Source: Syntrophomonadaceae bacterium
GTDB lineage: Bacteria; Bacillota; Dethiobacteria; DTU022
Reading direction: 5' to 3'
DNA length: 64,000 nucleotides
Assembly (NCBI GenBank): GCA_007132095.1
Contig: SLPH01000015.1
Location: forward strand, 221 to 64,220
Part shown: positions 17,840-60,582 of the stretch, one piece after another
How positions within the stretch are numbered: the first letter of the stretch is position 1
Layout of the letters: each line of letters opens with the position of its first letter
Program-made: the position numbers and the translations under genes
Notes under the pieces: generated by a model
Seen by the model: the letters and a program-made list of their open reading frames with translations, nothing else
What the model was told of the DNA's origin: nothing
Databases searched by the model: none

Positions 17840-18793
17840 GTGAGAATTGTCGCAGCGCTGGGCGGAAATGCGCTTTTAAAGTCTGGCCAGAAAGGAACGG
17901 CCGAAGAGCAATACGCCAACATTGAAACGGCCTGCCGGCAGCTGGTCCGGATTGCAGCTGAACATGAACTGGTTATTACCCACGGCAACGGGCCCCAGGT
18001 AGGAAGAATCAATTTGCAAAATGAAGCGGCCCGGGAAGAAACCCCCACGCTGCCGCTTGATATTTGCGGAGCTATGTCGCAGGGTCAGATCGGTTACATG
18101 CTCCAGCAGGGGCTCAGCAAAGAGCTGTCCAGGCAGGGCCTGGAACTGGATCCGGTTACGGTTGTGACCAGGATTCTGGTTTGCAAAGATGACCCAACCC
18201 TGGTCAGCCCCGGCAAGCCGATCGGATCCTATTTCAGCCGGAAAGAGGCGGAAGCCCGGGCCAGGGACCTGGGGGAAAAATGGATTGAAGATAAAACCAG
18301 GGGCGGCTGGCGCAAAGTGGTGGCATCGCCCAGGCCGGTATGGATTGTTGAAGAAAGGGCGATCAAGACCCTGCTCGAAAACCGGTTCCTCGTGATTGCC
18401 CTGGGCGGGGGAGGAATTCCAGTGCTGGGAAGCGAACAGGGAGGTTACCAGGGCGTTGAAGCGGTAGTAGACAAAGATCTGGCCGGGGGTATCCTTGCCG
18501 ATGCGGTGGGAGCGACCATCTTTCTCATTCTCACCGATGTGCCCGCAGTCTATCTTGATTACGGTAAGCCGACGCAGCGCCCCTTAGGAACAGTCAGCCT
18601 GGACGAGATGGTCAGCTATTCCAGGGAAGGTCACTTTGCAGCCGGAAGCATGGGACCCAAGGTTGAAGCGGCTGTTAAGTTTGCCCGCGAAAGAGGGCAT
18701 AAAACGATAATTACTTCGCTGGAACTGGCCCTGGAAGCGATTGAAGGCAGGGCCGGAACCTGCCTGGCAGCAAGCGGCTGCGGCGAGGCATAA
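17840..18793 (+). CDS. arcC: Carbamate kinase (YqeA/ArcC-like)
   Basis: MRIVAALGGNALL ... VITHGNGPQVG is canonical for carbamate kinase. 317 aa. It sits directly upstream of YqeB/YqeC, as in yqeA-yqeB-yqeC loci. Confidence 0.8.
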   Translation: MRIVAALGGNALLKSGQKGTAEEQYANIETACRQLVRIAAEHELVITHGNGPQVGRINLQNEAAREETPTLPLDICGAMSQGQIGYMLQQGLSKELSRQGLELDPVTVVTRILVCKDDPTLVSPGKPIGSYFSRKEAEARARDLGEKWIEDKTRGGWRKVVASPRPVWIVEERAIKTLLENRFLVIALGGGGIPVLGSEQGGYQGVEAVVDKDLAGGILADAVGATIFLILTDVPAVYLDYGKPTQRPLGTVSLDEMVSYSREGHFAAGSMGPKVEAAVKFARERGHKTIITSLELALEAIEGRAGTCLAASGCGEA

Positions 18794-18841
18794 GGAATAT
18801 TTACAAGTAAGATGACATGAAGAAGCTGAAAGGAGCAGGCC

Positions 18842-19669
18842 ATGAACACTGCGCTGCCCGGGCCGGTTTTGATCAAAGGCGCCGGCGACCTGGCCTCAGG
18901 GGTCGCACACCGTCTTTACCGGGCCGGCTTTGATATAATTATGCTTGAGCTGCCCCAGCCCCTGGTTGTCAGGCGGACGGCATCCTTTGCCGAAGCGGTA
19001 TTCAGGGGCGAAACCGTCCTGGAAGAGGTGAAGGCAAGGTTTTGCCCGACAGCGGAGAGCGCTGACCGAATTCTGCAGCGAAAAGAGATCCCTGTTATTG
19101 TTGACCCGGCGGGGCAGTCACGATTGCGCTTTAATCCGCCGGTCCTTATAGACGCTATTATGGCGAAGCGGAATACAGGCACTGCTCTTAGCGATGCTCC
19201 CCTTGTTATAGGTCTTGGGCCCGGTTTCTCAGCGGGAAGCGATGTTCACGTTGTTGTTGAAACAATGCGGGGCCACAACCTGGGCCGGGTCATTTATGAA
19301 GGAGAGGCTGAAGCTAATACTGACCTACCCGGCGAAGTTGGCGGAAAAGATCTGGAAAGGCTGCTGAGATCTCCCGGGGAAGGCAGATTTGAGCCGCTCT
19401 GTTCAATCGGCGATCTTGTGGAAAAGGGGCAGTTAGTGGCAAAAGTGGGCGCCGGTGAAATCATTGCCGCAACGGGGGGATTGATCAGGGGTCTTCTCTA
19501 TCCCGGGATCCTGGTAAAGCCCGGCATGAAAGTGGGCGATATTGACCCTCGCGGCAGTTCTGTTGACTGGAGAACCATATCCGATAAAGCAAGATCGATT
19601 GGCGGCGGCGTATTAGAGGCTGTAATGCACCATTTCTTTTTCCGGGAGATTGACAGGGAGGGGTCATAA
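18842..19669 (+). CDS. Selenium-dependent molybdenum hydroxylase system protein, YqeB family (short form)
   Basis: 275 aa with an N-terminal Rossmann-like IKGAGDLASGVAHRLYRAGF. The size and N-terminal motif fit the YqeB family as I recall it. Context: flanked by carbamate kinase and YqeC. Confidence 0.55.
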   Translation: MNTALPGPVLIKGAGDLASGVAHRLYRAGFDIIMLELPQPLVVRRTASFAEAVFRGETVLEEVKARFCPTAESADRILQRKEIPVIVDPAGQSRLRFNPPVLIDAIMAKRNTGTALSDAPLVIGLGPGFSAGSDVHVVVETMRGHNLGRVIYEGEAEANTDLPGEVGGKDLERLLRSPGEGRFEPLCSIGDLVEKGQLVAKVGAGEIIAATGGLIRGLLYPGILVKPGMKVGDIDPRGSSVDWRTISDKARSIGGGVLEAVMHHFFFREIDREGS

Positions 19670-21048
19670 TGAGAACCATGTCCCTGGCAGCCTGTCTAGA
19701 CCTGAAGAGAAACAGGGTCGTTTCCTTTTACGGCGCCGGGGGGAAAACCACCCTTATGCACCGCCTCGCTTCTGAACTGGCGGCGCTTGGTAAAAGAGTG
19801 CTGGTTACGACAACAACCAGGATCTACCCCCATCCGGCCCACAGGATAGTTTTCGCAAATAATGCAGGGCAGGTACGGGACATGCTGCAGGCGGGGCTTG
19901 CCAAAGAGCGCATCTGTATTGCCGCTGCCGGCATAGATGAAGGTAAGCTTATCGGTTTTGAGCCTCGCCTGATTGACGAACTGAAAGAACTGGACGACTT
20001 TTTTATTCTCGTCGAAGCAGATGGTTCGAAAGGTAAATCGCTCAAAGGTTTTGCCTTTCACGAACCGGTTATTCCGGCTTCATCCGATTTGATTGTTCCG
20101 CTGGCAGGGCTTGACGCCCTGGGCGGAACCCATGATCACGAAACAGTCCACCGCCTCCCGGAGCTGCTGGCCCTCACCGGGGCCAAAGAGGGAGAGATGA
20201 TCGGGGAAAGGCATATTGCCTCATATTTTAACCACGCTGTACGTCTGGGTTCCGCCCAGGCGCCTGGAGCGGCAATTATTCCGGCTTTAAACAAGAGCGA
20301 TCTTCTAACTAACCCGGCTTTTGCAACCTGGACCATTTCCTCCTTACTGACAGATGTAAAAATGATTAAATCGGTGATCGCTGTCCGGGTGGCAGGGGAA
20401 ATGCCGGTAAAAGCAATCTTTCCTTTTATAGGCGCGGGACCGGAAATTAAAATAACCGCGGTTATACTCGCCGCAGGAAGGGCCGCCAGGATGGGTAGAG
20501 ATAAACTCTCTCTTCAATTCGGAGAAAAAACAATCCTCGAACAGACCCTGGATAATGTAAGGTCAGGCGGAATAGAAGATATTGTTATAGTGATTCAGCC
20601 GGGCAGCCACTGGCCGGCAAAAATCAATTATGCCGGGGTCAGGTTTACCGAAAACCCGGATTATCATACCGGGCAGGCCAGTTCGGTCAAAGCCGCATTA
20701 AATGCGCTTGATCCGTATACACAGGCGGCCATGTTCGTTCTGGCTGACCAGCCGATGGTCGAGCCGGACATATACCGGCAGCTCGCAGGCAGCTACCGGG
20801 GCGCTCTCAAGCCCGTTACCTGCCCGGTTTTTAACGGCGCCAGGGGCAACCCGGCCATATTCGACCGTATTCTGTGGCCGGAACTGGCTCTGCTGAGCGG
20901 TGACACCGGGGGAAGGGCCATTATAAGCGAGCTTCCGGGCGCAATGATCGATCCTGTGCCGGTACGGTCTCCTTCGGTGCTTCAAGACATAGACACCGGC
21001 GAAGACTATAAACAACACCTTTCCGGCAGCAATAACCGGAAAACATAA
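19669..21048 (+). CDS. Fusion: YqeC-type P-loop accessory protein (N-term) + MocA/MobA-like molybdenum cofactor cytidylyl/nucleotidyl-transferase (C-term)
   Basis: N-terminal P-loop SFYGAGGKTTLMHRLA and a TTTTRIYP segment are YqeC-like. The C-terminal half carries ITAVILAAGRAARMGRDKL, the MobA/MocA glycine-rich NTP-transferase motif. The start overlaps the YqeB stop. Confidence 0.6.
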   Translation: MRTMSLAACLDLKRNRVVSFYGAGGKTTLMHRLASELAALGKRVLVTTTTRIYPHPAHRIVFANNAGQVRDMLQAGLAKERICIAAAGIDEGKLIGFEPRLIDELKELDDFFILVEADGSKGKSLKGFAFHEPVIPASSDLIVPLAGLDALGGTHDHETVHRLPELLALTGAKEGEMIGERHIASYFNHAVRLGSAQAPGAAIIPALNKSDLLTNPAFATWTISSLLTDVKMIKSVIAVRVAGEMPVKAIFPFIGAGPEIKITAVILAAGRAARMGRDKLSLQFGEKTILEQTLDNVRSGGIEDIVIVIQPGSHWPAKINYAGVRFTENPDYHTGQASSVKAALNALDPYTQAAMFVLADQPMVEPDIYRQLAGSYRGALKPVTCPVFNGARGNPAIFDRILWPELALLSGDTGGRAIISELPGAMIDPVPVRSPSVLQDIDTGEDYKQHLSGSNNRKT

Positions 21049-47607: not shown

Positions 47608-47880
47608 AAAAAAAACGCCTCCAAGAGACGAAAATTATGCTTTCCGTGATACCACTCTTCTTGGCAGCATGACGTCTACCGCCCACTCTTTATGATAACG
47701 GAAGTCTCCGGCCAGCCCTACTTGCGAAGTGGAAAGGTGTTGCCTTTCCTGCTTTCAGGTGGCGGCTCCCGGAGGAGTTCGCCGGCTTTTTCATACCGTT
47801 TTGCACCTGCCAACGGTTCTCTGAAAATGAATGGGCCGATTACTGGTTCCGGTCATCGCCTTTTCAATATTAAACTGATA
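47608..47880 (-). promoter_or_regulatory. Candidate T-box leader (leucine-specific) upstream of leuA
   Basis: Read on the minus strand. A stem-loop ggcg-AACUCCUCCGGGAG-ccgcc exposes a CUC leucine codon. A T-box-like AGAGUGGUAUCACGG sits immediately 5' of a terminator hairpin CGUCUC-UUG-GAGGCG followed by U8. The leader is about 315 nt. Confidence 0.45.
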
Positions 47881-47883
47881 TTT

Positions 47884-47912
47884 AGGATAACCAATAAGGC
47901 CGGTTTTGTCAA
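47884..47912 (-). promoter_or_regulatory. Putative sigma-A promoter for the leuA leader
   Basis: On the minus strand: TTGACA, 17-nt spacer, TATCCT. The -10 is weak. Confidence 0.3.
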
Positions 47913-48049
47913 TAACTTTTCTCCAAAAAAGGTTTGCCGAACAGGTAATAAATACCAAACGATCATAAAATACCGTTTAAGCTTGACTTTTTGGCAATAA
48001 TCCTTCAGAATATATATATAATTCCGCATATACCTCGCCGAACGGAGGT

Positions 48050-49012
48050 TTGTCGGTGCAAGCCCGTAAAAGCGGCCCGCCGGTTTTAAACGGTTACGAG
48101 CAAAATGCCCTGCTAAGACAGCCTAACCCCAAAGCTGCCACAGGTCTTCGTAACCTCTGCATTATAGTCCTTATGCTGAAAGCCGGTTTGCGAACCGGAG
48201 AAATTACCGAACTGCAGGCAGATTCCTTTGACTGGGATGAAAGAAAGATTTACATCAGCGAAAGTGGGGGAGCCGAGAGCAGAATTCTTCTGCTGGCTGC
48301 CGATGAAATAGATATCCTTTCAACCTGGAACGCCAAAAGACCCTTCTCAAGCCCCTATTTTCTTTGTACCCTGGCCGGGGATAAGCTGAAAGACCGCTAT
48401 ATCAGGGAAATGATCAAACGGTTGGCCAGAAAAGCCGATATTAAGAAGGATGTTCACCCGCACATGCTGCGCCATACCTTTGCAGCCGACCTGCTCAGGG
48501 AGACTGGAGATCTGACCCTTGTGCAGAAAGCGCTTGGCCATCGCGATATTTCCGCTACTCGGATATATATGAATTTGGCTCCGGAAACTAAAGGCCATTG
48601 CCCTGACGGACCCGAAGCGCATCAAAGAAGCGGGATTCCGGAACTGGAGGATCAGCAGATGCAATTCAAACTGCCCGACGAAAAATACGGTCACAAGGAC
48701 AATCGCGGCAACGACAGCCCTGCACAGGAAAAGGAAGAGGCAGATACTTTGCCGTTAAAGGAAGATCAGGACCAGCTATCCATGAGCAATAACCGGGCCG
48801 CAGCTTCTGTTAAAAAGGAAAGAGACCCAGGTGAAACAGGAGAAAGCGGTTCTATCGTAAAGGAGGCCGGAATTACGATAGAGACCCGCCGTGTGCCCAT
48901 TCCGGCGATAAAGTGCAGCAAGTGCAGTTATATTTTGCGCTTCCAGGAAAACTGCCCCCAGTGTGGCGAACCGTTTATCTCTATCCTTAAACACTGGGGG
49001 AGAAGGATTTGA
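48050..49012 (+). CDS. Tyrosine recombinase catalytic-domain protein with a low-complexity linker and C-terminal zinc ribbon; no N-terminal core-binding domain
   Basis: TTG start 8 nt after ACGGAGG. The catalytic residues are all present: R (GLRTGE), HxxR (HMLRH), H (GHRDI) and Y (RIYMN). They begin ~35 aa from the N-terminus, so the SAM-like N-domain is missing. The C-terminus is CSKCSYILRFQENCPQCGEPF. Confidence 0.6.
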   Translation: MSVQARKSGPPVLNGYEQNALLRQPNPKAATGLRNLCIIVLMLKAGLRTGEITELQADSFDWDERKIYISESGGAESRILLLAADEIDILSTWNAKRPFSSPYFLCTLAGDKLKDRYIREMIKRLARKADIKKDVHPHMLRHTFAADLLRETGDLTLVQKALGHRDISATRIYMNLAPETKGHCPDGPEAHQRSGIPELEDQQMQFKLPDEKYGHKDNRGNDSPAQEKEEADTLPLKEDQDQLSMSNNRAAASVKKERDPGETGESGSIVKEAGITIETRRVPIPAIKCSKCSYILRFQENCPQCGEPFISILKHWGRRI

Positions 49013-49308: not shown

Positions 49309-50226
49309 ATGCTAAACAACCTTTACCATTTAACTAAACGCAAGATCTATTTTCTTACCCTGATTGTAACTTTGTTCCTTGCGCTTGGTTTTCTGTTTGC
49401 CTGCCAACCCGATAGGGCTTTAAACGATACCGGCACAGAAGTTGATAATACAGTAGAAAGCCCGCAGGACGAGCCTGACAGCACAGATGAACCAGAAGAA
49501 CCTGTCGAACCGGATCCCCCTCCTCCCTCTCCCCTACCAGTATTTGGTATATATGCCGGGGCCGGCAGCTGGCTTGAAAACGTTGAGGCAATCTCTAACT
49601 TTCTGGATCACTACGGGTATGAATGGTATCAATTCGATGCAGAAGAAGCAGCCACTTCAGAACCGGCCGATCTTTATGACGTGATCTGGTTTCCGGGCGG
49701 TTTTGCCGCTGAATATAAGCATTATATCGGGGATCATGAAAATATCCGCTCTTTTGTCCACCAGGGCGGTACCTTTATCGGTTCCTGCGCCGGCGCCTAT
49801 TACGCTTCTGCTGTATTGCGCTGGTCTGGAACTGCTTACGATTACCCCCTCTCGCTTTTCGAAGGTGAAGCGGTCGGGCCGATGTCCGGTTTGATCGGCT
49901 GGGGAAGCCAGGCCGAAATCAGCCCTGAAGCGGGCCATCCGGTTTCAGAAAACTTCCCCGAAAAGATTGAAATGTGCTATTGTGACGGCCCTTATTTTAA
50001 AGCTGATCAAAATGGGCAGGACCTGGTAGTCCTTGCCCGTTATATTGTTAATGATAAACCGGCTGTAGTTGCTGTACCTTTTGGATCAGGTAAAGCGCTG
50101 CTGCTCGGTCCTCACCCGGAATTAAGCCGCTACGATCCCTCCTCTGCCGGCTTCGACCTTGAAGGCGGGGAAGGATCCCAGTGGCCCTGGCTTCACGAGG
50201 CCATCCTCTGGCTGATTGATTGGTGA
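49309..50226 (+). CDS. Putative lipoprotein with a class-I glutamine-amidotransferase-like (BPL_N / DJ-1-like) domain
   Basis: Signal peptide with lipobox LFAC, then an acidic Pro-rich linker. The GGFAAEY ... GGTFIGSCAGAYYAS region resembles a GATase1-like nucleophile elbow. Confidence 0.45.
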   Translation: MLNNLYHLTKRKIYFLTLIVTLFLALGFLFACQPDRALNDTGTEVDNTVESPQDEPDSTDEPEEPVEPDPPPPSPLPVFGIYAGAGSWLENVEAISNFLDHYGYEWYQFDAEEAATSEPADLYDVIWFPGGFAAEYKHYIGDHENIRSFVHQGGTFIGSCAGAYYASAVLRWSGTAYDYPLSLFEGEAVGPMSGLIGWGSQAEISPEAGHPVSENFPEKIEMCYCDGPYFKADQNGQDLVVLARYIVNDKPAVVAVPFGSGKALLLGPHPELSRYDPSSAGFDLEGGEGSQWPWLHEAILWLIDW

Positions 50227-50290
50227 CTCCTGTGATATAATAAAACAGTATAAGTTAAACCAGCTCAACTAACCGAAAGGTGGATCCTAA

Positions 50291-51607
50291 ATGCGTAGAA
50301 TTACTTTCTTAATCCTGGGTCTTGTCCTTGTTGTTCTCGCTTTCTGGGGCGGGACAGCCCTGGGTGAAATGTTCCCCATATTTGAAACTGCACCGGATAC
50401 CGCAGCGGAAGAAAGCGTTGTTGAAATAGTTGATGAGCCTGAGGAAGAAGAAGAGATTTTCAATCCGGATCTGCGAACGGCCAGTTTAGTGGCTGTGGGA
50501 AACATAATGGCTCATACGCCCCAGATCGAGCAGGCCCATATTGGCGATGGCGAGTATGATTTCAGTCCCAGCTTTGAATATATCGCTCCCTATCTGCAGC
50601 CGGCTGACCTGGCGATAGCCGACCTTGAAGTTTCTCAGGCCGGGCCCGATATTTCTTTCTGGAACTACAGCGGTTACACGGGGTTTCCTCTTTTCAACGC
50701 CCCCCAGGAGCTCTCTGTTGCTCTTCGTGATGCCGGCATCGATGCTATGACCCTGGCGAACAACCATGCCATGGATCGAGGCTACGACGGCCTGCAGATA
50801 ACGATCGACCACCTGGGCAGCCTTGGGATCGAGACCTTCGGGGCTTACAAGAGCCGGGAAGAGCGCGACACTCCGACTATCGTGGATTTGAACGGCATTG
50901 AAGTCGCCCTCATCGGTTACACCTACAGTACAAACGGTATTCCTGTCCCCGACGGACATGATTATGCCGTTAATATCACCGAAGAGTTCCGTGATACCGA
51001 GCCTGTTATAAATGACATAAATCAGGCCCGGTTGGCGGGAGCCGATCTGGTGGTTGTATTCCCTCACTGGGGCGCCGAGCACACCACAGAGCCTCAGCCG
51101 GGTTACCTGCGCGACGCTGCTTATGAAATGGCGGCTGCGGGCGCCGACCTGATTATCGGCGGCCATCCGAAGTATATCCAGCCCCTGGAGTGGTTTTTCT
51201 TTGAAAATCCGGATGGCACAGAAAGAGCTTCTCTTGCCGTCTATTCGCAGGGCAACTTTATATCTAACCAGCACTATCCCCATAATCTTTCCCCCCACGT
51301 TGAATACGGCCTGCTGCTCGATTTCGAGCTAACCAAAAGCATGGATACCGGAAAGGCCTGGATCAGCGGCGTCGATTATGAAATAACCTGGGTTCACCGC
51401 GCCTGGCGGCACCGGATTTTGCCTTTGAGCGAAGTCATGACCGGGAACCCGGACACCTATAACCTCACCTCGTCAAAGGTTGATGAACTGGAAAGCTGGA
51501 GACAACGGATTATTGATGTTATTGATCTCTACGGCTACAGTGATGAGAAATCGAGGGCCATGGCCCTGGCAAACGCTCTTCTTGACGAGGCAATGAAACC
51601 ACAATAA
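50291..51607 (+). CDS. CapA / PgsA-family metallophosphatase-fold protein
   Basis: N-terminal transmembrane anchor. VAVGNIMAHTP and LANNHAMDRGYDGL are typical CapA motifs. 438 aa. Confidence 0.7.
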   Translation: MRRITFLILGLVLVVLAFWGGTALGEMFPIFETAPDTAAEESVVEIVDEPEEEEEIFNPDLRTASLVAVGNIMAHTPQIEQAHIGDGEYDFSPSFEYIAPYLQPADLAIADLEVSQAGPDISFWNYSGYTGFPLFNAPQELSVALRDAGIDAMTLANNHAMDRGYDGLQITIDHLGSLGIETFGAYKSREERDTPTIVDLNGIEVALIGYTYSTNGIPVPDGHDYAVNITEEFRDTEPVINDINQARLAGADLVVVFPHWGAEHTTEPQPGYLRDAAYEMAAAGADLIIGGHPKYIQPLEWFFFENPDGTERASLAVYSQGNFISNQHYPHNLSPHVEYGLLLDFELTKSMDTGKAWISGVDYEITWVHRAWRHRILPLSEVMTGNPDTYNLTSSKVDELESWRQRIIDVIDLYGYSDEKSRAMALANALLDEAMKPQ

Positions 51608-51620
51608 CGGGGTATGTGAT

Positions 51621-52850
51621 TTGAACATCGGTATTTTTACAGACAGCTATCGTCCTTACACCAGCGGAGTGGTAAGATCGATTGAGCTCTTTTCCCGCGA
51701 ATTTAACAGCCGTGGCCATAAAGTATATATATTCGGCCCCGATTATCCACTGCTGCCCTCTACCAAGGAAGATCGGGTATACCGCTTTGCCTCGGTGCCT
51801 GCCCCCACATTTCCTGAGTTCTCCCTGGCTATTCCCATATCTGCTCAGCTGGGGCAAACGATCAGGGAAATAGATTTGGATATTATTCATGTCCAGTCCC
51901 CATTCCTGCTGGGCAGGCTTGGAGCCAGATCTGCCAGGAAACACCGTTTACCCCTGGTCTTTACCTTTCACACTCTTTATGATCAGTACGTTCACTACTT
52001 CCCAATCGCTGAAAAAACATCGAAGCAGATTATCCAGCGTATGGGCAGGGAATTTTGCAACCGCTGCAATGCAGTTATAGCCCCTTCCCGCCTGGTAGCC
52101 GGTTACTTGCAGCGGATCGGCGTGGAAACGGAAATACATACTATCCCAACCGGAATTGACCTTGACGAATTCAAAGACTTGAACAGCTCCTGGCTGCAGG
52201 ATAATCATGGTGTTAAGCCCGAAGAAAAAGTGCTTCTCTTTGTCGGCAGGCTGGGTCAGGAAAAAAACGTCTCTTTCCTGCTGAAGTCCTTTAAAAAAAT
52301 TCTTTCCCGGCAGCCTCAAACCCGCCTGGTGCTCGTGGGTAAGGGCCCCCAGGAGGCTCGCTTGCGCAAACAGTGCAGGCAGCTCGGTATTTTAGATAAT
52401 GTAATATTTACCGGTGTTCTTCCCCGGCAGAAAATAGTTCACTGTTTTGCCAGCTCGCATATATTTACCTTCCCTTCGGTGACTGAAACCCAGGGGATTG
52501 TTATTGGCGAAGCGATGGCCACCGGCCTTCCCGTGGTTGCCATCAGGGCCTTTGGGCCGGCTGAAATGGTTAGCGACGGAGAAGACGGCTTTCTCACCGA
52601 GCCGAACCTGAACGCCTTTACCGATGCGGTTTTGAAACTTCTGGCCGATGATGAGCTCTACAAGAGCATGAGTGCCAGGGCCAAAGAAAACGTCCAGAAT
52701 ATTTCACTAAGCCGCTGCGCCGACCGGATGCTTGATCTTTACAGCGACCTGATCGACAGAAACGTAGCCGCACCCAGGCTTTGGCCCTATAAGAATACTG
52801 GAAAAGGGCCTGTAAAGACTTGGCTTGATACATTCAAGGAGGATAACTGA
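51621..52850 (+). CDS. Family 4 glycosyltransferase (GT4, GT-B fold)
   Basis: The N-terminal IGIFTDSYRPYTSGV acceptor domain and C-terminal donor domain with the GEAMATGLPVVA region and an E-x7-E-like context fit GT4. TTG start. Confidence 0.75.
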   Translation: MNIGIFTDSYRPYTSGVVRSIELFSREFNSRGHKVYIFGPDYPLLPSTKEDRVYRFASVPAPTFPEFSLAIPISAQLGQTIREIDLDIIHVQSPFLLGRLGARSARKHRLPLVFTFHTLYDQYVHYFPIAEKTSKQIIQRMGREFCNRCNAVIAPSRLVAGYLQRIGVETEIHTIPTGIDLDEFKDLNSSWLQDNHGVKPEEKVLLFVGRLGQEKNVSFLLKSFKKILSRQPQTRLVLVGKGPQEARLRKQCRQLGILDNVIFTGVLPRQKIVHCFASSHIFTFPSVTETQGIVIGEAMATGLPVVAIRAFGPAEMVSDGEDGFLTEPNLNAFTDAVLKLLADDELYKSMSARAKENVQNISLSRCADRMLDLYSDLIDRNVAAPRLWPYKNTGKGPVKTWLDTFKEDN

Positions 52851-52854
52851 GCAA

Positions 52855-53946
52855 ATGAATACGATTGAAAAAGCTTTAATGCACGGTCTTTTCGTCCACC
52901 TGCATCACAATATCGATAAGGCAATCGATTTTAGCGTATTTAAAAAGCTTAATGAAAAGGTGGCCGAAAATTCACCGGGTCGCTTGCTGGTTGGTCCCGA
53001 TGCCAATGATGACGCTGCAGTTTTCCAGCTGCCCGGCGATGATGGCCTGGTAGCGGCAAAAATGGAAAGCCACTGTTCACCCTGTGTACCCAGGCCCTAC
53101 GATAGCGCCGCCACCGGTGCCGGGGGAGCCATGCGCGATGTTGTTGCCATGGGCGCCCGCCCCCTTTTCCTGCTTGATTTTATCGGCACCCGCCCCCTGG
53201 ACCAGGAGGTTCTGGTCGGCCCCTGCGGTTTTAAGGGTGAATGCACCTGCGGCGAATGTTTAACCATGACCAGCGGCGAGCGCGTTGACCTGATTGTCAG
53301 GGGGATCAGGGATATGTGTGAAACCATGGGCGTATATGTTGTCGGAGGCGGCCTCTCCACTTCTTTTAGTGATATAGTGCCGGCTGTTGTCGCCGCTGTA
53401 ATCGGCAGGATGGTCGTTGATCAGCCTCTCACAAAACCGGCAAAAAATGAAGGCGATCGGTTAATCATTGTCGGCGAAACCGACAACGACGGAAATGATA
53501 CCTTATACAGGGCCGGTCTGGCAGATGTAATGCGCCCGGCTGTAGCCCTTTTTGATGAAGAGAAAAAGACCATGGAAGCAGCTCTCGCCGCTATTAAGAC
53601 AGGGAAAATAAACGCCTGCTCTGATCTTGGCGCTGCCGGCGTCGGCGCCGCAGTTAGCGAGTCGGTCCGCTTTGGCGGTCTCGGCGCCCTTGTAGATCTC
53701 TCCCTGGTTCCGCTTAAAAAGGCAGGGTTGAGCCCGGAAGAAATCCTGATCTGTGAAACCCAGGCCCGTATGCTCTTCCAGGTTAATCCGGGCGATGTAG
53801 ATACCGTAATCGCCGCTGTACGCGGCAAGGGTGCCCCTGTCGCAGAAATCGGGGAGATAACCGGCAGCAAAGAAGCTGTATTTATGCACGGGGAAAGTAG
53901 AATTGCCACTGTTCCGCACCAGCCGCCCCGGGAACTGTTTGAGTAA
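52855..53946 (+). CDS. AIR-synthase-related (PurM-superfamily) protein of unknown function
   Basis: GPDANDDAAVF and the GAGGAMRDVVAMGARPLFLLDFIG region show a PurM/HypE/ThiL-like fold. ATG 12 nt after AGGAGG. The gene is tightly linked to the GT4 gene. Confidence 0.65.
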   Translation: MNTIEKALMHGLFVHLHHNIDKAIDFSVFKKLNEKVAENSPGRLLVGPDANDDAAVFQLPGDDGLVAAKMESHCSPCVPRPYDSAATGAGGAMRDVVAMGARPLFLLDFIGTRPLDQEVLVGPCGFKGECTCGECLTMTSGERVDLIVRGIRDMCETMGVYVVGGGLSTSFSDIVPAVVAAVIGRMVVDQPLTKPAKNEGDRLIIVGETDNDGNDTLYRAGLADVMRPAVALFDEEKKTMEAALAAIKTGKINACSDLGAAGVGAAVSESVRFGGLGALVDLSLVPLKKAGLSPEEILICETQARMLFQVNPGDVDTVIAAVRGKGAPVAEIGEITGSKEAVFMHGESRIATVPHQPPRELFE

Positions 53947-54113: not shown

Positions 54114-54998
54114 TTACAAGAGCTCACCGCCCGCAACCATGACCACCCTCCCTCCTACTTCGACCTCAATAATGCCCTCTTTCTCTTCCGCTTTCAGGAA
54201 AAGGAGCGAGGGCCTTTTAATTTCGTAACCCTGTTCGACGCGCAGATCAACTACTTCCGTCCCGAAATAACGGTTCTTGACCAGGTATGCTGCCAGGCAC
54301 CCGTTAGCGCTGCCCGTGGCCGGGTCTTCCGGAATTCCGTGATAATGATCAAACATTCGTGCGTTCAGCTGGTTCTCCCTGCTATAGCACTCAGGGCTGA
54401 AAACAAATATCGATTTAGCGTCAGTATCTTCGATTAAACTTTCATAACGCTCCATGTTAACCCGGCATGATTTTACCGCAGCAAGGTTTTTCAGCGGGAC
54501 AATGATGAAAGGAAGCCCCGTGGAAACTTCTTCAATGGGGTGGCGGTTATCTATTTGCCCCTCAGTGAGACCAAGAACAGGAGCCAGGTCCCGGGGGCTG
54601 TATTTCCTGCCGAAAACCGGCGGGATCTGCTTCATCCATAAAATGTCCGGCCTGCCGTTGAGGTATGAAAAACTGACCGGTATAGGGCCAACTCCAAGGT
54701 TCAGGGTAACCTCATCTACTTCCGATCTGATTAGCTCCTGCTGGATAATATATGCCGTGCCGAGGGTCGGATGCCCTGCAAAGGGCAGCTCTTCGTCAAG
54801 CGAGAAAATGCGGACACTGTAACCGCCCTGAATAGGCTCATCCTGCAAAATAAAGGTTGTTTCAGAGTAATTCATTTCAGCAGCTATCTTTTGCATTTCT
54901 TCGCCGGTCAGGTTGGCGGCGTTTCTAATAACGGCAAGCTGGTTACCGGCATACTTATCTTCGGCAAAAACATCAACCAGGTAGAATGGATGCGTCAT
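54114..54998 (-). CDS. PhzF-family isomerase (phenazine biosynthesis-like, DapF fold)
   Basis: N-terminal FYLVDVFAEDKYAGNQLAV and ETTF are typical PhzF motifs. I chose the start MTHPF. Confidence 0.75.
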   Translation of the reverse strand: MTHPFYLVDVFAEDKYAGNQLAVIRNAANLTGEEMQKIAAEMNYSETTFILQDEPIQGGYSVRIFSLDEELPFAGHPTLGTAYIIQQELIRSEVDEVTLNLGVGPIPVSFSYLNGRPDILWMKQIPPVFGRKYSPRDLAPVLGLTEGQIDNRHPIEEVSTGLPFIIVPLKNLAAVKSCRVNMERYESLIEDTDAKSIFVFSPECYSRENQLNARMFDHYHGIPEDPATGSANGCLAAYLVKNRYFGTEVVDLRVEQGYEIKRPSLLFLKAEEKEGIIEVEVGGRVVMVAGGELL

Positions 54999-55309: not shown

Positions 55310-55714
55310 ATTAAACGATGGCTCTTAAAAATTGAACCGCACGAATACAGTTTCGAAGACCTGGTCAGGGAAAAAATCGCAGTCTGGGACGGGGTCAGCG
55401 CCCCGGCGGCATTAAAAAACATGCGCGCCATGAAAAAAGGCGATCCCGTTTTCATTTACCACACCGGGACCGAAAGGGCGATCGTGGGGACCGGAACGGT
55501 GGTCGAAGAAGCCTACCCTGATCCGTTGAAGGAAGATGAGCGCTATGTTGTGGTAGAGATAGAGGCCGGCGAAGCCCTGAACAGCCCGGTTACCCTGGCT
55601 GAAATTAAATACTCCGACCTTTTCCCCGATTGGGACCTGGTCAGGATCCCCCGTCTCTCCGTGGTGCCCGTAAGCAAAAAGCAGTGGGACCAGGTTATCC
55701 GCTGGAGCCGCTAA
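55310..55714 (+). CDS. EVE (PUA-like) domain protein; non-canonical start (ATT?) or disrupted
   Basis: The conserved N-terminus WLLKIEPHEYSFEDL ... precedes the first ATG at 55421. The only start-like codon after the in-frame TGA at 55301 is ATT at 55310, 6 nt after a perfect GGAGGTGA SD. Confidence 0.55.
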   Translation: MKRWLLKIEPHEYSFEDLVREKIAVWDGVSAPAALKNMRAMKKGDPVFIYHTGTERAIVGTGTVVEEAYPDPLKEDERYVVVEIEAGEALNSPVTLAEIKYSDLFPDWDLVRIPRLSVVPVSKKQWDQVIRWSR

Positions 55715-55756: not shown

Positions 55757-56563
55757 TTAGTCCGGGATGCTGTTCTCACAGGGGACATCAACCTGGCACT
55801 TGCCGCAGGCACTGTACGGGTAGCTGTACTTATCCCTGATTGCTCCGGAAAATTGATCAAGCTTCTCGATCTGGCCCTTGCAGGCCGCCTTATCCATGCC
55901 CTCTTCAGATATTGCTCCCGCGGGGCAGCGATCGATACAGGCGCCGCAGCTTTTATCGATCAAGAAGGGGCAATCTTTATAATAAACCTCAGACGACCTG
56001 ATTGAAGGCGGAAAATTCAGGTCTGTAATGACGCTGCCAAAGCGCCCTGCCATCCCTTTTTCTGTAATCAGCCCCCTGCTTAAACCAAACGTTCCCAGCC
56101 CCGCCGCAAAGGCAACGTGCCGTTCGGACCAGTTGCTCAGACCTCTGTCATGATCATACGCAAAATCTGGTTCGCAAACCGGGGCAATGGCCCTGCCGCC
56201 GCTTTCTGTCAGCATCCTGACGATTAAATTACGGATCTTGTCGTTTACTTTCTCGCCCAGGAACCGGGCGTGCATCCAGTCTTCCGAAGGTTCATTGATC
56301 TTGTAGTTGGCTTTCTTTATCGCCATGGTAAAGGGCAGGAAATATGAAATTATCGTTACTGCTCCGGGCAGCCATTCGCCGGGCAGCCGAAAGACGGATC
56401 CGATAATTGCGTCATCTTTCATTTTTTCGAACAGGGGATCTGCCGCATCAACAAATCCGACCAGGGGCTGGTCATATATTTTATCCCCCGCCGGGGTCCT
56501 GTTTTCACTGTCGCTATCCAGTAAAGAAATAATGGCCTCATTCAAGCTGCTGCTCTCTAGCAT
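55757..56563 (-). CDS. Iron-sulfur protein with a 2[4Fe-4S] C-terminal region (QueG / reductive-dehalogenase-related?)
   Basis: CGACIDRCPAGAI and CGKCQVDVPC motifs. The N-terminal domain is weakly QueG/DUF1730-like. Family call is uncertain. Confidence 0.5.
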   Translation of the reverse strand: MLESSSLNEAIISLLDSDSENRTPAGDKIYDQPLVGFVDAADPLFEKMKDDAIIGSVFRLPGEWLPGAVTIISYFLPFTMAIKKANYKINEPSEDWMHARFLGEKVNDKIRNLIVRMLTESGGRAIAPVCEPDFAYDHDRGLSNWSERHVAFAAGLGTFGLSRGLITEKGMAGRFGSVITDLNFPPSIRSSEVYYKDCPFLIDKSCGACIDRCPAGAISEEGMDKAACKGQIEKLDQFSGAIRDKYSYPYSACGKCQVDVPCENSIPD

Positions 56564-56759: not shown

Positions 56760-56835
56760 TGGCTGCGGGACTAGGGATCGAACCTAGGCTTGGTGATCCA
56801 GAGTCACCCGTGCTACCGCTACACCATCCCGCAGC
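56760..56835 (-). tRNA. tRNA-Gln (anticodon CTG)
   Basis: The reverse complement folds as a cloverleaf with a CTCTGGA anticodon loop, GGTTCGATCC T-arm and CCA. It lies downstream of gltX on the same strand. Confidence 0.9.
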
Positions 56836-58514: not shown

Positions 58515-59648
58515 TTAGGTTAGAATGGAAAGCAGAATACCTGCTGCTACAGCCGAACCGATTACACCGGCAACATTCGGGCCCATGGCGTGCATGAGCA
58601 GGTAATTGTTCGGGTTTTCCTCTTTACCAACAGCCTGGGAGACCCTGGCGGCCATCGGGACCGCTGAAACTCCGGCTGAACCGATTAACGGGTTGATCCG
58701 GCCGCCGGTGAACTTATAGAGCAATTTACCCATCAGCACTCCGGTGAAAGTTCCGAAAGCAAAAGCAGCAAGGCCGAGGCCAATAATTTTCAGGGTGTCG
58801 GGGGTGAGGAAATATGCGGCAGTAGCTTTACCTCCCACGCTGATTCCAAGGAAAATAACGACAATATTATTCAGCTCATTCTGGGCGGCTTTACTCAAAC
58901 GCTCTGTAACTCCGCTCTCCCTGAGCAGGTTGCCAAGCATAAGCATCCCGAGCAGCGGGATAGCTGCCGGGAGAAGTAATCCGGTAAGGATAATGACAAT
59001 GATCGGAAAGAGAACTTTTTCCGTCTTTGAGACGGGTCGCAGCTGTTCCATCACTACCTGCCGCTCTTTTTTGGTGGTCAAAAGCTTCATAATCGGCGGT
59101 TGGATGATGGGAACCAGGGCCATGTAAGAGTAAGCGGCTATAGCGATGGAGCCGAGAAGCTCCGGCGCAAGCTGGTTGGCCAGAAAGATCGCCGTTGGCC
59201 CGTCGGCCCCCCCGATTATTCCGATTGCTCCTGCCTGCTGGGGAGAAAAGCCCATAAAAAAGGCGCCGACAAAAGTCATGAATATACCGAACTGGGCTGC
59301 CGCGCCCAACAGCAGGGTAACAGGGTTGGCAATCAGGGGTCCGAAATCTGTTAAAGCCCCGACGCCTAAAAAGATCAGCGGTGGATAAATACCATATTCC
59401 AAACCGAGGGCAAGATAATAAAGCAGGCCGCCGGCATCCTGTCCGGGGCCGGGAGCAGCCATCAGGTCGCCCAGCGGCAGGTTTACAAGTAAAATGCCGA
59501 AGCTGATCGGAACCAGCAGCAGCGGTTCATACTTCTTAACAATACCCAAATATAGCAGGAAGCAGGCAATCACGATCATGAGCACTTCCGGCGGTGTCAG
59601 GTTAAAATAACCGGTTGATTCTAAAAATTCCCAGGCTAGTTCAATCAC
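58515..59648 (-). CDS. oadB: Na+-translocating decarboxylase beta subunit (OadB/GcdB/MmdB family)
   Basis: 377-aa polytopic membrane protein. The OadB-like Gly-rich helices fit the family. Confidence 0.8.
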
Positions 59649-59689
59649 AGGTTCATCCCCTTTTTAAGTAATTTTAGTGGCGCGTCATT

Positions 59690-60112
59690 TTACGACAACA
59701 CTACCAGGGGATCGCCGCTGTTAACTGTATCGCCTTTTTTCACCATGACCTGAGAAACGGTGCCTGCCTGGGAAGCGGTAAGTTCATTTTCCATTTTCAT
59801 CGCCTCCAGGATCAATAATACATCACCGTCTTTTACGACATCACCTTCGTTGACAACAACATTTATTACTGAGCCCGGCATTGGCGCTTTTACGGTAAAC
59901 CCGGCGCCGCTCGCAGCGGGCTGGGGGCTTTCCTGTTTAGCGGGAGTTTCTGCCGGTTTAGCAGCTGCGGCAGGAGCCGGACTTGCTGCCGGTGCAGGAA
60001 CGGAAGCGGCTGCGGCAGGCTGGCTGTCGGTGGAGTTTTCGCCGCTTTCCTTCAGTTCTTCAACCTGAACTGTAAAAGGCTGTCCATCTACTGTTACTTT
60101 AAATGTTTTCAC
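59690..60112 (-). CDS. Biotin carboxyl carrier subunit of the decarboxylase (GcdC/MmdC-like)
   Basis: Ala/Pro-rich linker, then a biotinyl domain with the EAMKMENE motif. Confidence 0.8.
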   Translation of the reverse strand: MKTFKVTVDGQPFTVQVEELKESGENSTDSQPAAAASVPAPAASPAPAAAAKPAETPAKQESPQPAASGAGFTVKAPMPGSVINVVVNEGDVVKDGDVLLILEAMKMENELTASQAGTVSQVMVKKGDTVNSGDPLVVLS

Positions 60113-60497
60113 GCTGTTTATTCCTCCTAATCTGTTCTAAAACTATTCTACCGGATTGAAGGCGTTTCCGGCCATTAATAACCCAGTTGTTTGCACTCCC
60201 CCCGCCAGGCTGCTGAACAGAAATAGTTAATCTGCCCGGTGAGTAAGAAGCACCCATCCCTTCGATATAAGCGTATACTGCTCCCATTGCTGCAGCGATA
60301 ACCGCTTCCGGCGCTTTTCCCGCAGGTTCGGAAGCTACAGCAGGAGCGGTGGTTCCTTCTGATTTCGCCGGTTTTTCTTTTTTATAAAAGATGCGATTAA
60401 AAAGGATCAGAAGAAAAAAGAGGGAGATCAGTGTTACAAGGACAACAGTAAAGCCAAGAACCAGAACCTGTAATGCAAATGTTAGATCATTTCCCAT
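60099..60497 (-). CDS. Decarboxylase small membrane-anchor subunit (OadG-like)
   Basis: N-terminal transmembrane helix, then an Ala/Pro-rich segment, typical of OadG/GcdD-type subunits. It overlaps the biotin-carrier gene by 14 nt. Confidence 0.6.
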   Translation of the reverse strand: MGNDLTFALQVLVLGFTVVLVTLISLFFLLILFNRIFYKKEKPAKSEGTTAPAVASEPAGKAPEAVIAAAMGAVYAYIEGMGASYSPGRLTISVQQPGGGSANNWVINGRKRLQSGRIVLEQIRRNKQRENI

Positions 60498-60582
60498 CTA
60501 TGTAATAATCCCTCCCGGGTGAGCATATACTCAATAATAGCATTTATGAAGCGGCCTGAAAAGGGCGATTTAGCCTTTTACC

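Follow-up and report, generated by a model that had tools for sequence, protein, structure and literature searches.

The subject of this analysis is a run of four open reading frames (ORFs) in a 64,000-nucleotide stretch of DNA, hereafter the window, from a Syntrophomonadaceae bacterium (positions 221 to 64,220 of contig SLPH01000015.1, assembly GCA_007132095.1). In order, the ORFs encode an amidotransferase-like lipoprotein with a BPL_N domain, a signal-anchored protein of the CapA/PgsA family, a glycosyltransferase of family 4 (GT4) and a PurM-superfamily protein, termed here PurL-half, that corresponds to one half of PurL (Table 1). A preliminary description of the sequence had placed four co-oriented genes at these positions and had assigned their domains; all four are present on the forward strand, and the assignments are borne out by Pfam. 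Its proposal that they constitute a pathway for a cell-surface product receives limited support for the first three genes, which do form an envelope block, and does not extend to the fourth. The interval is likely to comprise two unrelated things, an envelope block that is conserved within one lineage and a PurL-half gene that landed behind the GT4 gene.

Many conserved homologues were found for each of the four ORFs, which are therefore real genes rather than chance reading frames. The gaps between them are 64, 13 and 4 nucleotides (nt), the last of which presupposes that the PurL-half gene starts at the ATG at position 52855. An AAGGAGG Shine-Dalgarno sequence lies 12 nt upstream of this codon, the stop codon of the GT4 gene lies 4 nt before it, and the same start is used in the public annotation of the source contig (ENA ERZ27301263 k141_1367409, 135,672 bp). 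The spacing of 5-64 nt given earlier is thus right at its upper value and off by one base at the last junction. No terminator-like sites were found between the four genes.

Proteins of the envelope block

The product of the first gene belongs to the BPL_N family (PF09825) within the class I glutamine amidotransferase clan. Its N-terminal hydrophobic segment ends in LALGFLFAC, and an L-x-x-C arrangement occurs at the same place in most of 30 homologues. The protein is laid out as a lipoprotein, with a signal peptide, an acidic proline-rich linker and then a well-predicted domain, and on the strength of its lipobox it is predicted to be exported and lipid-anchored. The catalytic triad consists of C160, at the nucleophile elbow (GSCAGAYYA), together with the H269-P270-E271 segment (GPHPE); across the 30 homologues there is no variation at C160, H269 or P270 and at least 90% conservation at E271. 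The AlphaFold model has a predicted local distance difference test score (pLDDT) of 88, and its best matches among folds in the PDB are the glutaminase subunits HisH, Pdx2 and TrpG/PabA. Since the triad would be extracellular and is not accompanied by a synthase partner, ammonia channelling is not expected, and the protein more probably attacks gamma-glutamyl or amide bonds, as a hydrolase or as a transferase. Its functional analogy is presumably closer to the gamma-glutamyl hydrolases of the same fold. A literature search on BPL_N lipoproteins found nothing relevant.

The second gene encodes a protein that matches nearly the whole PGA_cap profile (PF09587) and that begins with an RR pair and a hydrophobic signal anchor. 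Its only relative in the PDB is the Ca-dependent peptide epimerase MslH (PDB 8GQ9), whose catalytic dyads are His88/Asp91 and His295/Asp11 (PMC10406935). In 79 distant CapA homologues the conserved motifs read GD.., N[QL]E, NNHAMD, HWGxE and G[HSN]HPH, whereas in the window protein and five orthologues (at loci L081, L162-L164 and L168, described below) they read GN.. (GNIM in the window), DLE, NNHxxD, HWGxE and GGHPK. The NNHxxD motif, which carries the first MslH dyad and a metal ligand, is thus retained. The canonical GD.., N[QL]E and G[HSN]HPH core motifs of CapA and MslH are not found in the window protein, in which the positions aligned with MslH Asp11 and His295 are Asn and Lys; these residues are accompanied by a compensating change from N[QL]E to DLE, and the arrangement is kept in all five orthologues. 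Neither pgsB/capB nor pgsC/capC genes were found within 10 kb of the gene or in the syntenic loci. The variant motifs and the missing pgsB and pgsC therefore point to a distinct CapA subtype rather than to the usual subunit of a poly-gamma-glutamate synthetase operon.

The third gene encodes a cytoplasmic, retaining GT4 enzyme. The best of 46 glycosyltransferase models in NCBIfam is Mgs (NF049988), which is matched over the full length of the protein (residues 1-381) at 192.9 bits against a cutoff of 400; next in rank is BshA (TIGR03999), with 139.8 bits against a cutoff of 273.7. The nearest solved structures are those of BshA and MshA, with BshA 5d00 as the best PDB match (E 1e-25), and orthologues are named 1,2-diacylglycerol 3-alpha-glucosyltransferase in JGI. 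Judged from these family relationships, the GT4-lipoprotein-CapA block probably combines a glycolipid synthase with two outward-facing envelope enzymes, and the earlier characterization of the cluster as envelope-associated and uncharacterised was right.

Conservation of the block among relatives

Eight related loci were available for comparison, one from a metagenome scan with the CapA-like protein (L081) and seven reached by way of BPL_N homologues (L162-L168), which makes nine loci when the window is counted. The order leuA-recombinase-BPL_N-CapA-GT4-gltX is found in five of the relatives (L081, L162, L163, L164 and L168), with an extra EamA gene inserted in the block of L162. In the other three (L165, L166 and L167), CapA and the recombinase are both missing and BPL_N is followed directly by GT4, with gaps of 16-72 nt; in L167 this pair is kept despite a different upstream neighbour. 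Overall, BPL_N stands directly upstream of GT4 or of CapA-GT4 in all nine loci, GT4 is present in all nine and CapA in six. GT4 is the most conserved of the three proteins (58-68% identity to the window, compared with 46-59% for BPL_N). As a rough proxy for co-occurrence, 20 contigs coincide exactly in size between the lists of BPL_N and GT4 matches, and none coincides with the PurL-half list. The conserved unit is a lipoprotein-GT4 core with CapA as an accessory, and it belongs to one Dethiobacteria-like lineage; where sources name them, the close homologues come from metagenome-assembled genomes (MAGs) of Dethiobacteria or Bacillota.

The tyrosine recombinase gene upstream of the block occupies the same position in the five relatives that have CapA (39-43% identity; six of nine loci with the window), and it is absent exactly where CapA is absent. 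The encoded protein consists of a catalytic domain without a core-binding domain, a long low-complexity linker and a C-terminal CxxC...CxxC ribbon. A phase-variable promoter under recombinase control was considered and set aside, as only short, weak inverted repeats were found (the best being 10 nt at 90%, intergenic).

It could be that the block reflects positional synteny only, in which case GT4 would be a glycolipid synthase with a housekeeping role, and neither the lipoprotein nor the CapA-like protein would be related to it in function. All nine loci do fall in the same hflX-lexA...gltX region, CapA is missing from a third of them, EamA interrupts one, GT4 is better conserved than BPL_N, and neither BPL_N nor a close GT4 is seen at the 79 distant CapA loci. 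We nevertheless regard this explanation as rather unlikely, because BPL_N and GT4 remain neighbours after the loss of CapA and next to a changed upstream gene (L165-L167), and because 20 contigs carry both. The survival of this junction favours a real functional link. Since the nine loci represent a single lineage and a single chromosomal region, they do not by themselves separate a functional unit from inherited synteny.

The PurL-half protein

Membership of the PurL-half protein in the PurM superfamily is evident from its AIRS and AIRS_C domains (Table 1), and its predicted fold agrees. No NCBIfam model reaches its cutoff with this protein. The PurL model (TIGR01736) gives 176.4 bits against a cutoff of 525.75, over model positions 51-351 of 718, and the scores with ThiL, SelD and PurM are 27.7, 48.7 and 22.6 bits (cutoffs 184, 125 and 236, respectively; HypE is not listed among these scores). 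With the AlphaFold model (pLDDT 83.5), Foldseek ranks the N-terminal half of Thermotoga maritima PurL first (E 2.5e-25, 30% identity) and HypE, SelD and ThiL after it. Grouping with ThiL or HypE, which the preliminary description had named as grounds for refutation, is therefore not seen; the affinity of the protein is to the N-terminal half of PurL. The active site, also singled out there, contains the DX4GAXP motif for ATP as D95-VVAM-G100-A-R-P103.

Strong constraint is apparent across the family, for which statistics were compiled from 81 sequences of several phyla. Pairwise identity does not fall below 62%, and 131 of the 363 positions of the window protein are invariant, among them H15, H17 and H18 (HLHHNxDK), E71-S-H73, D95-x4-GAxP103, C255 and D257, with C300 present in 80 of 81 sequences. 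Also invariant is a C124-x5-C130-x-C132-x2-C135 hairpin, an insertion at residues 122-135 that PurL does not have. C74, by comparison, is replaced by Asn in eight of the 81 sequences and is therefore not essential. H73 aligns with the catalytic histidine of PurL (His72), the residue that is Ala in the T. maritima structures PDB 2hru and 2hry. Several PurL motifs have been exchanged, WSEHCSYK for HLHHNIDK, ESHNHPS for ESHCSP and SESQERM for CETQARM. As the ATP motif and the catalytic histidine are retained, the protein is likely an active enzyme, with a predicted chemistry of the iminophosphate type.

The family is also sharply separated from its relatives. Among the best 150 matches in a library clustered at 50% identity, one is a full-length family member (P0121, 65% identity) and the rest are short fragments, two of them at 47-51%; the next matches are ordinary PurLs of ~730 amino acids (aa) at ~33% identity. 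Half-size PurL-like matches at 34-41% identity were examined as possible intermediates and rejected as truncated canonical PurLs. In comparisons with the window sequence, identity at four-fold sites is 0.23-0.42, nonsynonymous divergence (dN) is 0.13-0.26 and synonymous divergence (dS) is saturated throughout; for two closer pairs, dN/dS is 0.04 and 0.11. The G+C content at third codon positions (GC3) ranges from 0.40 to 0.80 and tracks that of the hosts. Recent horizontal transfer was rejected as the source of the high protein identity in view of the saturated dS and the spread of GC3, which indicate purifying selection instead.

Carriers of the gene are labelled as Syntrophomonadaceae, Dethiobacter, Limnochordia, Oscillospiraceae, Sumerlaeota, Bacteroidales/Rikenellaceae, Spirochaetaceae and Syntrophobacterales, and their habitats are sediments of soda lakes, anaerobic digesters, the guts of termites and serpentinising springs. 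MAG labels can err, but a Bacteroidales contig of 3.36 Mb and a Sumerlaeota contig of 251 kb support the breadth. We judge it about an even call that the PurL-half protein is a functionally new branch of the PurM superfamily, namely a stand-alone and probably homodimeric ATP-dependent enzyme that has a four-cysteine (Cys4) hairpin for a metal (Zn or Fe-S) and that carries out an as yet unrecognised reaction, close to housekeeping in character, in strictly anaerobic members of five or more phyla. Literature searches on this family and on AIR synthase in Syntrophomonas found nothing relevant.

Conceivably, the protein could instead be the phosphoribosylformylglycinamidine (FGAM) synthetase of its host, acting as a homodimeric "mini-PurL". 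PurL is the closest family by both sequence and fold, the equivalents of its Glu70 and His72 are retained along with DX4GAXP, and databases name the protein either phosphoribosylformylglycinamidine synthase (PurL) or AIR synthase-related protein. This identification is improbable, however, given a score of 176 bits where the PurL model demands 526, the replacement of the PurL signature motifs, the invariant Cys4 insertion and an identity of at least 62% across phyla, which is far tighter than that of PurL itself. Moreover, purQ, purS and other pur genes are not among the 25 commonest Pfam families that flank the gene (141 genes at 76 loci).

Genomic context of the PurL-half gene

The neighbourhoods of relatives with 66-82% identity were compared at 80 genome loci, with up to 8 kb of flanking sequence on each side. 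Relatives of GT4, CapA or BPL_N occur within 8 kb at none of the 80 (E<=1e-10). When the flanking ORFs were clustered, no family was present at more than 10 loci, and the recurrent ones came from closely related genomes. The 141 immediate flanking genes match 161 Pfam families, of which the commonest, Peptidase_M20, appears five times; no purine, glycosyltransferase, PGA_cap or BPL_N family is found among the 25 commonest, and among 31 close same-strand neighbours no family appears more than twice. In most relatives the gene is preceded by a gap of 100-500 nt, which in several contains a TATAAT-like box. The PurL-half gene is normally monocistronic. Carriage on a mobile element was considered because of four copies in the MAG JAGXRN01 (Dethiobacter sp. 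CROMO_A_105) and was rejected, as these are explained by duplicated contigs (L042/L045 and L044/L047, 99.99-100% identical over 10-17 kb) together with two paralogues of 84% DNA identity.

The reciprocal comparison gives the same picture. None of the eight relatives of the envelope block contains the AIRS-like, PhzF, EVE or Fer4 genes that follow GT4 in the window, and in one MAG (GCA_012727685.1) the BPL_N-GT4 pair (L167) and the AIRS-like gene (L031) are on different contigs. The four-gene unit, which the preliminary description had expected to be syntenic in other genomes, was thus recovered in none. In L162-L165 a tRNA-Gln(CTG) gene comes directly after GT4, in either orientation, whereas in the window it is found only after the Fer4 gene (ARAGORN). 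From these absences and from the position of the tRNA gene, a stretch of ~3.9 kb (52855 to ~56700) is taken to be specific to this genome. The occurrence of the tRNA gene in both orientations suggests repeated local rearrangement, and the PurL-half gene probably adjoins the block by accident of such rearrangement, though it is probably co-transcribed with it here. A discrete island integrated at tRNA-Gln is unsupported, as no flanking direct repeats, att-like repeats or tRNA fragment were found. Nor could the breakpoint of the insertion be placed from the end of GT4, since the C-terminal tails vary in all orthologues.

The seemingly translationally coupled junction raises the possibility that the PurL-half enzyme was recruited into the GT4 operon in this one genome and modifies its product, but this is very improbable for a single occurrence in which the gene arrived with unrelated PhzF, EVE and Fer4 genes at a tRNA-adjacent gap and in which relatives with 82-85% identity sit in unrelated contexts. 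Also to be considered is the earlier analogy with the MSMEG_0565/sll0787 pairing, which relates to the Nit1C cluster of nitrilase, radical SAM, acetyltransferase (GNAT) and AIR synthase genes, in which a glycosyltransferase is inserted in some betaproteobacteria (PMC1199592). The analogy does not hold. The GT4 scores 79.0 bits with the MSMEG_0565 family (TIGR04047; cutoff 259.85), the AIRS-like protein scores 35.6 bits with the sll0787 family (TIGR04049; cutoff 321.3), over residues 150-359 only, and among the genes called in the 10 kb to the left and to the right, Pfam searches recovered neither a nitrilase nor a radical SAM or GNAT protein. The pairing in the window is not a GT4/PurM pairing of the Nit1C type. 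A single surface-glycoconjugate pathway of all four genes, in which the PurM-like enzyme would work with GT4 as in MSMEG_0565/sll0787, can claim the tight co-orientation of the genes, the 4-nt junction with its strong Shine-Dalgarno sequence and no terminator, and the glycosyltransferase of some Nit1C clusters, but it has very little chance of being correct in the face of these scores, the missing Nit1C genes and the separation of the PurL-half gene from its supposed partners at all 80 of its own loci and all eight block loci.

Surrounding genes

The genes of the region occur in the order miaA-hfq-hflX-lexA-leuA-recombinase-BPL_N-CapA-GT4-AIRS-PhzF(-)-EVE-Fer4(-)-tRNA-Gln(-)-gltX(-), followed by Na+-decarboxylase subunits, SpoVS and RNase Y. 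The locus is core chromosome of a spore-forming member of the Bacillota. An Rfam scan for riboswitches or leaders upstream of the block found only the T-box leader of leuA and a tRNA; because of this leader, a 102-aa ORF on the opposite strand at 47692-48000 is considered spurious. No gene was matched in a PADLOC scan for defence systems.

Two further gene sets were observed elsewhere in the window. Beyond gltX in window coordinates are the beta, biotin-carrier and gamma genes of a Na+-translocating decarboxylase (58515-60500, reverse strand), with 83-85% identity in relatives. At 17840-21048, a fusion of YqeC with a MobA-like nucleoside triphosphate transferase (19669-21048, forward strand) has as neighbours an AA_kinase gene of the carbamate kinase type and a 275-aa ORF without assignment, and this set has the hallmarks of the accessory genes of a selenium-dependent molybdenum hydroxylase.

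Table 1. Genes and RNA features in and around the four-gene interval (window coordinates)
Feature	Position	Strand	Basis
Gene 1, BPL_N lipoprotein	49309..50226	+	Pfam BPL_N 69.1 bits (cutoff 24.2)
Gene 2, signal-anchored CapA/PgsA-family protein, variant active-site subtype	50291..51607	+	Pfam PGA_cap 206.8 bits (cutoff 27), profile positions 2-255 of 255
Gene 3, cytoplasmic GT4 retaining glycosyltransferase	51621..52850	+	Glyco_transf_4 129 bits and Glycos_transf_1 149 bits
Gene 4, stand-alone 363-aa PurL-half protein	52855..53946 (ORF from 52825)	+	AIRS 67.1 bits (cutoff 24) and AIRS_C 80.8 bits (cutoff 23.1)
T-box leader upstream of leuA	47621-47865	-	Rfam 120.7 bits
Tyrosine recombinase catalytic domain, C-terminal CxxC...CxxC tail	48050..49012	+	Pfam Phage_integrase 113 bits
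PhzF-family isomerase	54114-54998	-	Gene call and Pfam
Small 55-aa ORF	within 54114-56563		Gene call
EVE-domain protein	55421-55714	+	Gene call and Pfam
Fer4 (Fer4_16) protein, weak QueG resemblance	55757-56563	-	Gene call and Pfam
tRNA-Gln(CTG), adjoins gltX	56760..56833	-	Rfam tRNA 61 bits; ARAGORN

Proposed functions

In the arrangement that we favour, of an envelope block and an unrelated PurL-half gene, the GT4 would act as a cytoplasmic, membrane-peripheral enzyme of the Mgs type that moves a hexose from a uridine diphosphate (UDP)-sugar to diacylglycerol, as expected from its family. The resulting glycolipid could serve as a membrane lipid or as a polymer anchor. Tethered on the outer face of the membrane, the lipoprotein and the CapA-like enzyme may then act on the envelope, the former by hydrolysing or transferring a gamma-glutamyl or amide-linked group through a thioester, the latter as a metal enzyme with a remodelled second acid/base site, possibly a phosphoesterase or an epimerase of peptides or poly-glutamate. 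The PurL-half gene, for its part, would have landed behind GT4 together with PhzF, EVE and Fer4 in a rearrangement-prone gap before tRNA-Gln. Its product is predicted to be an enzyme that uses ATP and that presumably forms a homodimer in the manner of the PurL pseudo-dimer. Most likely it phosphorylates a carbonyl or amide oxygen by iminophosphate chemistry, and its invariant Cys4 hairpin probably holds a metal.

Several observations weigh against this arrangement or limit its detail. PurL-half is probably co-expressed with GT4, given the gap of 4 nt, the strength of the Shine-Dalgarno sequence and the lack of a terminator, so that a local functional link is possible. The loci of the block all derive from one lineage and one region (hflX-lexA ... 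gltX), and their gene order could be inherited synteny. The GT4 is far under the Mgs equivalog cutoff (193 compared with 400 bits), the lipid anchor and the membrane topology were assigned by inspection of the sequence, and the substrates of all four proteins are putative.

As a cluster, the interval is ordinary; what it yields is a pair of modest leads, the PurL-half orphan family and the CapA subtype with its rewired active site. A lipoprotein with an intact glutaminase triad that is persistently paired with an Mgs-like synthase, often with a rewired CapA as well, offers a testable envelope module of alkaliphilic and anaerobic Bacillota. The PurL-half family is a well-defined orphan enzyme, being constrained, widespread and equipped with clear catalytic motifs. 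It is also an annotation trap, as the label "PurL" would falsely complete purine pathways in reconstructions from MAGs.

Comparison with known systems

The window resembles the Nit1C neighbourhood in that a GT4-class glycosyltransferase adjoins a PurM-superfamily protein. It differs in that both proteins miss the dedicated models by 3- to 9-fold in bits and in that this adjacency is unique to the present genome. As first proposed, the cluster matters little; it is no new GT4/PurM pathway and should not be passed on as a Nit1C analogue.

Similar comparisons can be drawn for the individual proteins. With HisH, Pdx2 and TrpG, the lipoprotein shares the fold (TM-scores of 0.7-0.8 on the target), the nucleophile-elbow cysteine and the H-P-E triad; unlike these subunits, it is a predicted exported, lipid-anchored protein without a synthase partner. 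The CapA-like protein shares with CapA/PgsA and MslH the PGA_cap domain, the NNHxxD motif (MslH Asn87/His88/Asp91) and HWGxE, and its N-terminal anchor is like that of PgsA. It departs from CapA/PgsA in having no capB or capC partners and from MslH in the replacement of the Asp11/His295 dyad. The third protein has the two-Rossmann GT4 architecture of Mgs and BshA, and the EX7E motif is visible in its sequence; as its scores lie below both cutoffs, it is an equivalog of neither.

The closest known counterpart of the PurL-half protein is small PurL (FGAM synthetase II), as represented by the T. maritima structures 2HS0 and 2HS3. Relative to this enzyme (canonically ~600-740 aa), the window protein has half the length, one AIRS/AIRS_C unit rather than two, no PurQ/PurS context, an added Cys4 hairpin and a score of one third of the model cutoff. 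What the two have in common is the fold, the Glu70 and His72 equivalents within ESH, the DxGAAG motif and DX4GAXP, the last of which has been described as the ATP signature of the PurM superfamily, along with a mechanism of the iminophosphate type (PMC13013826).

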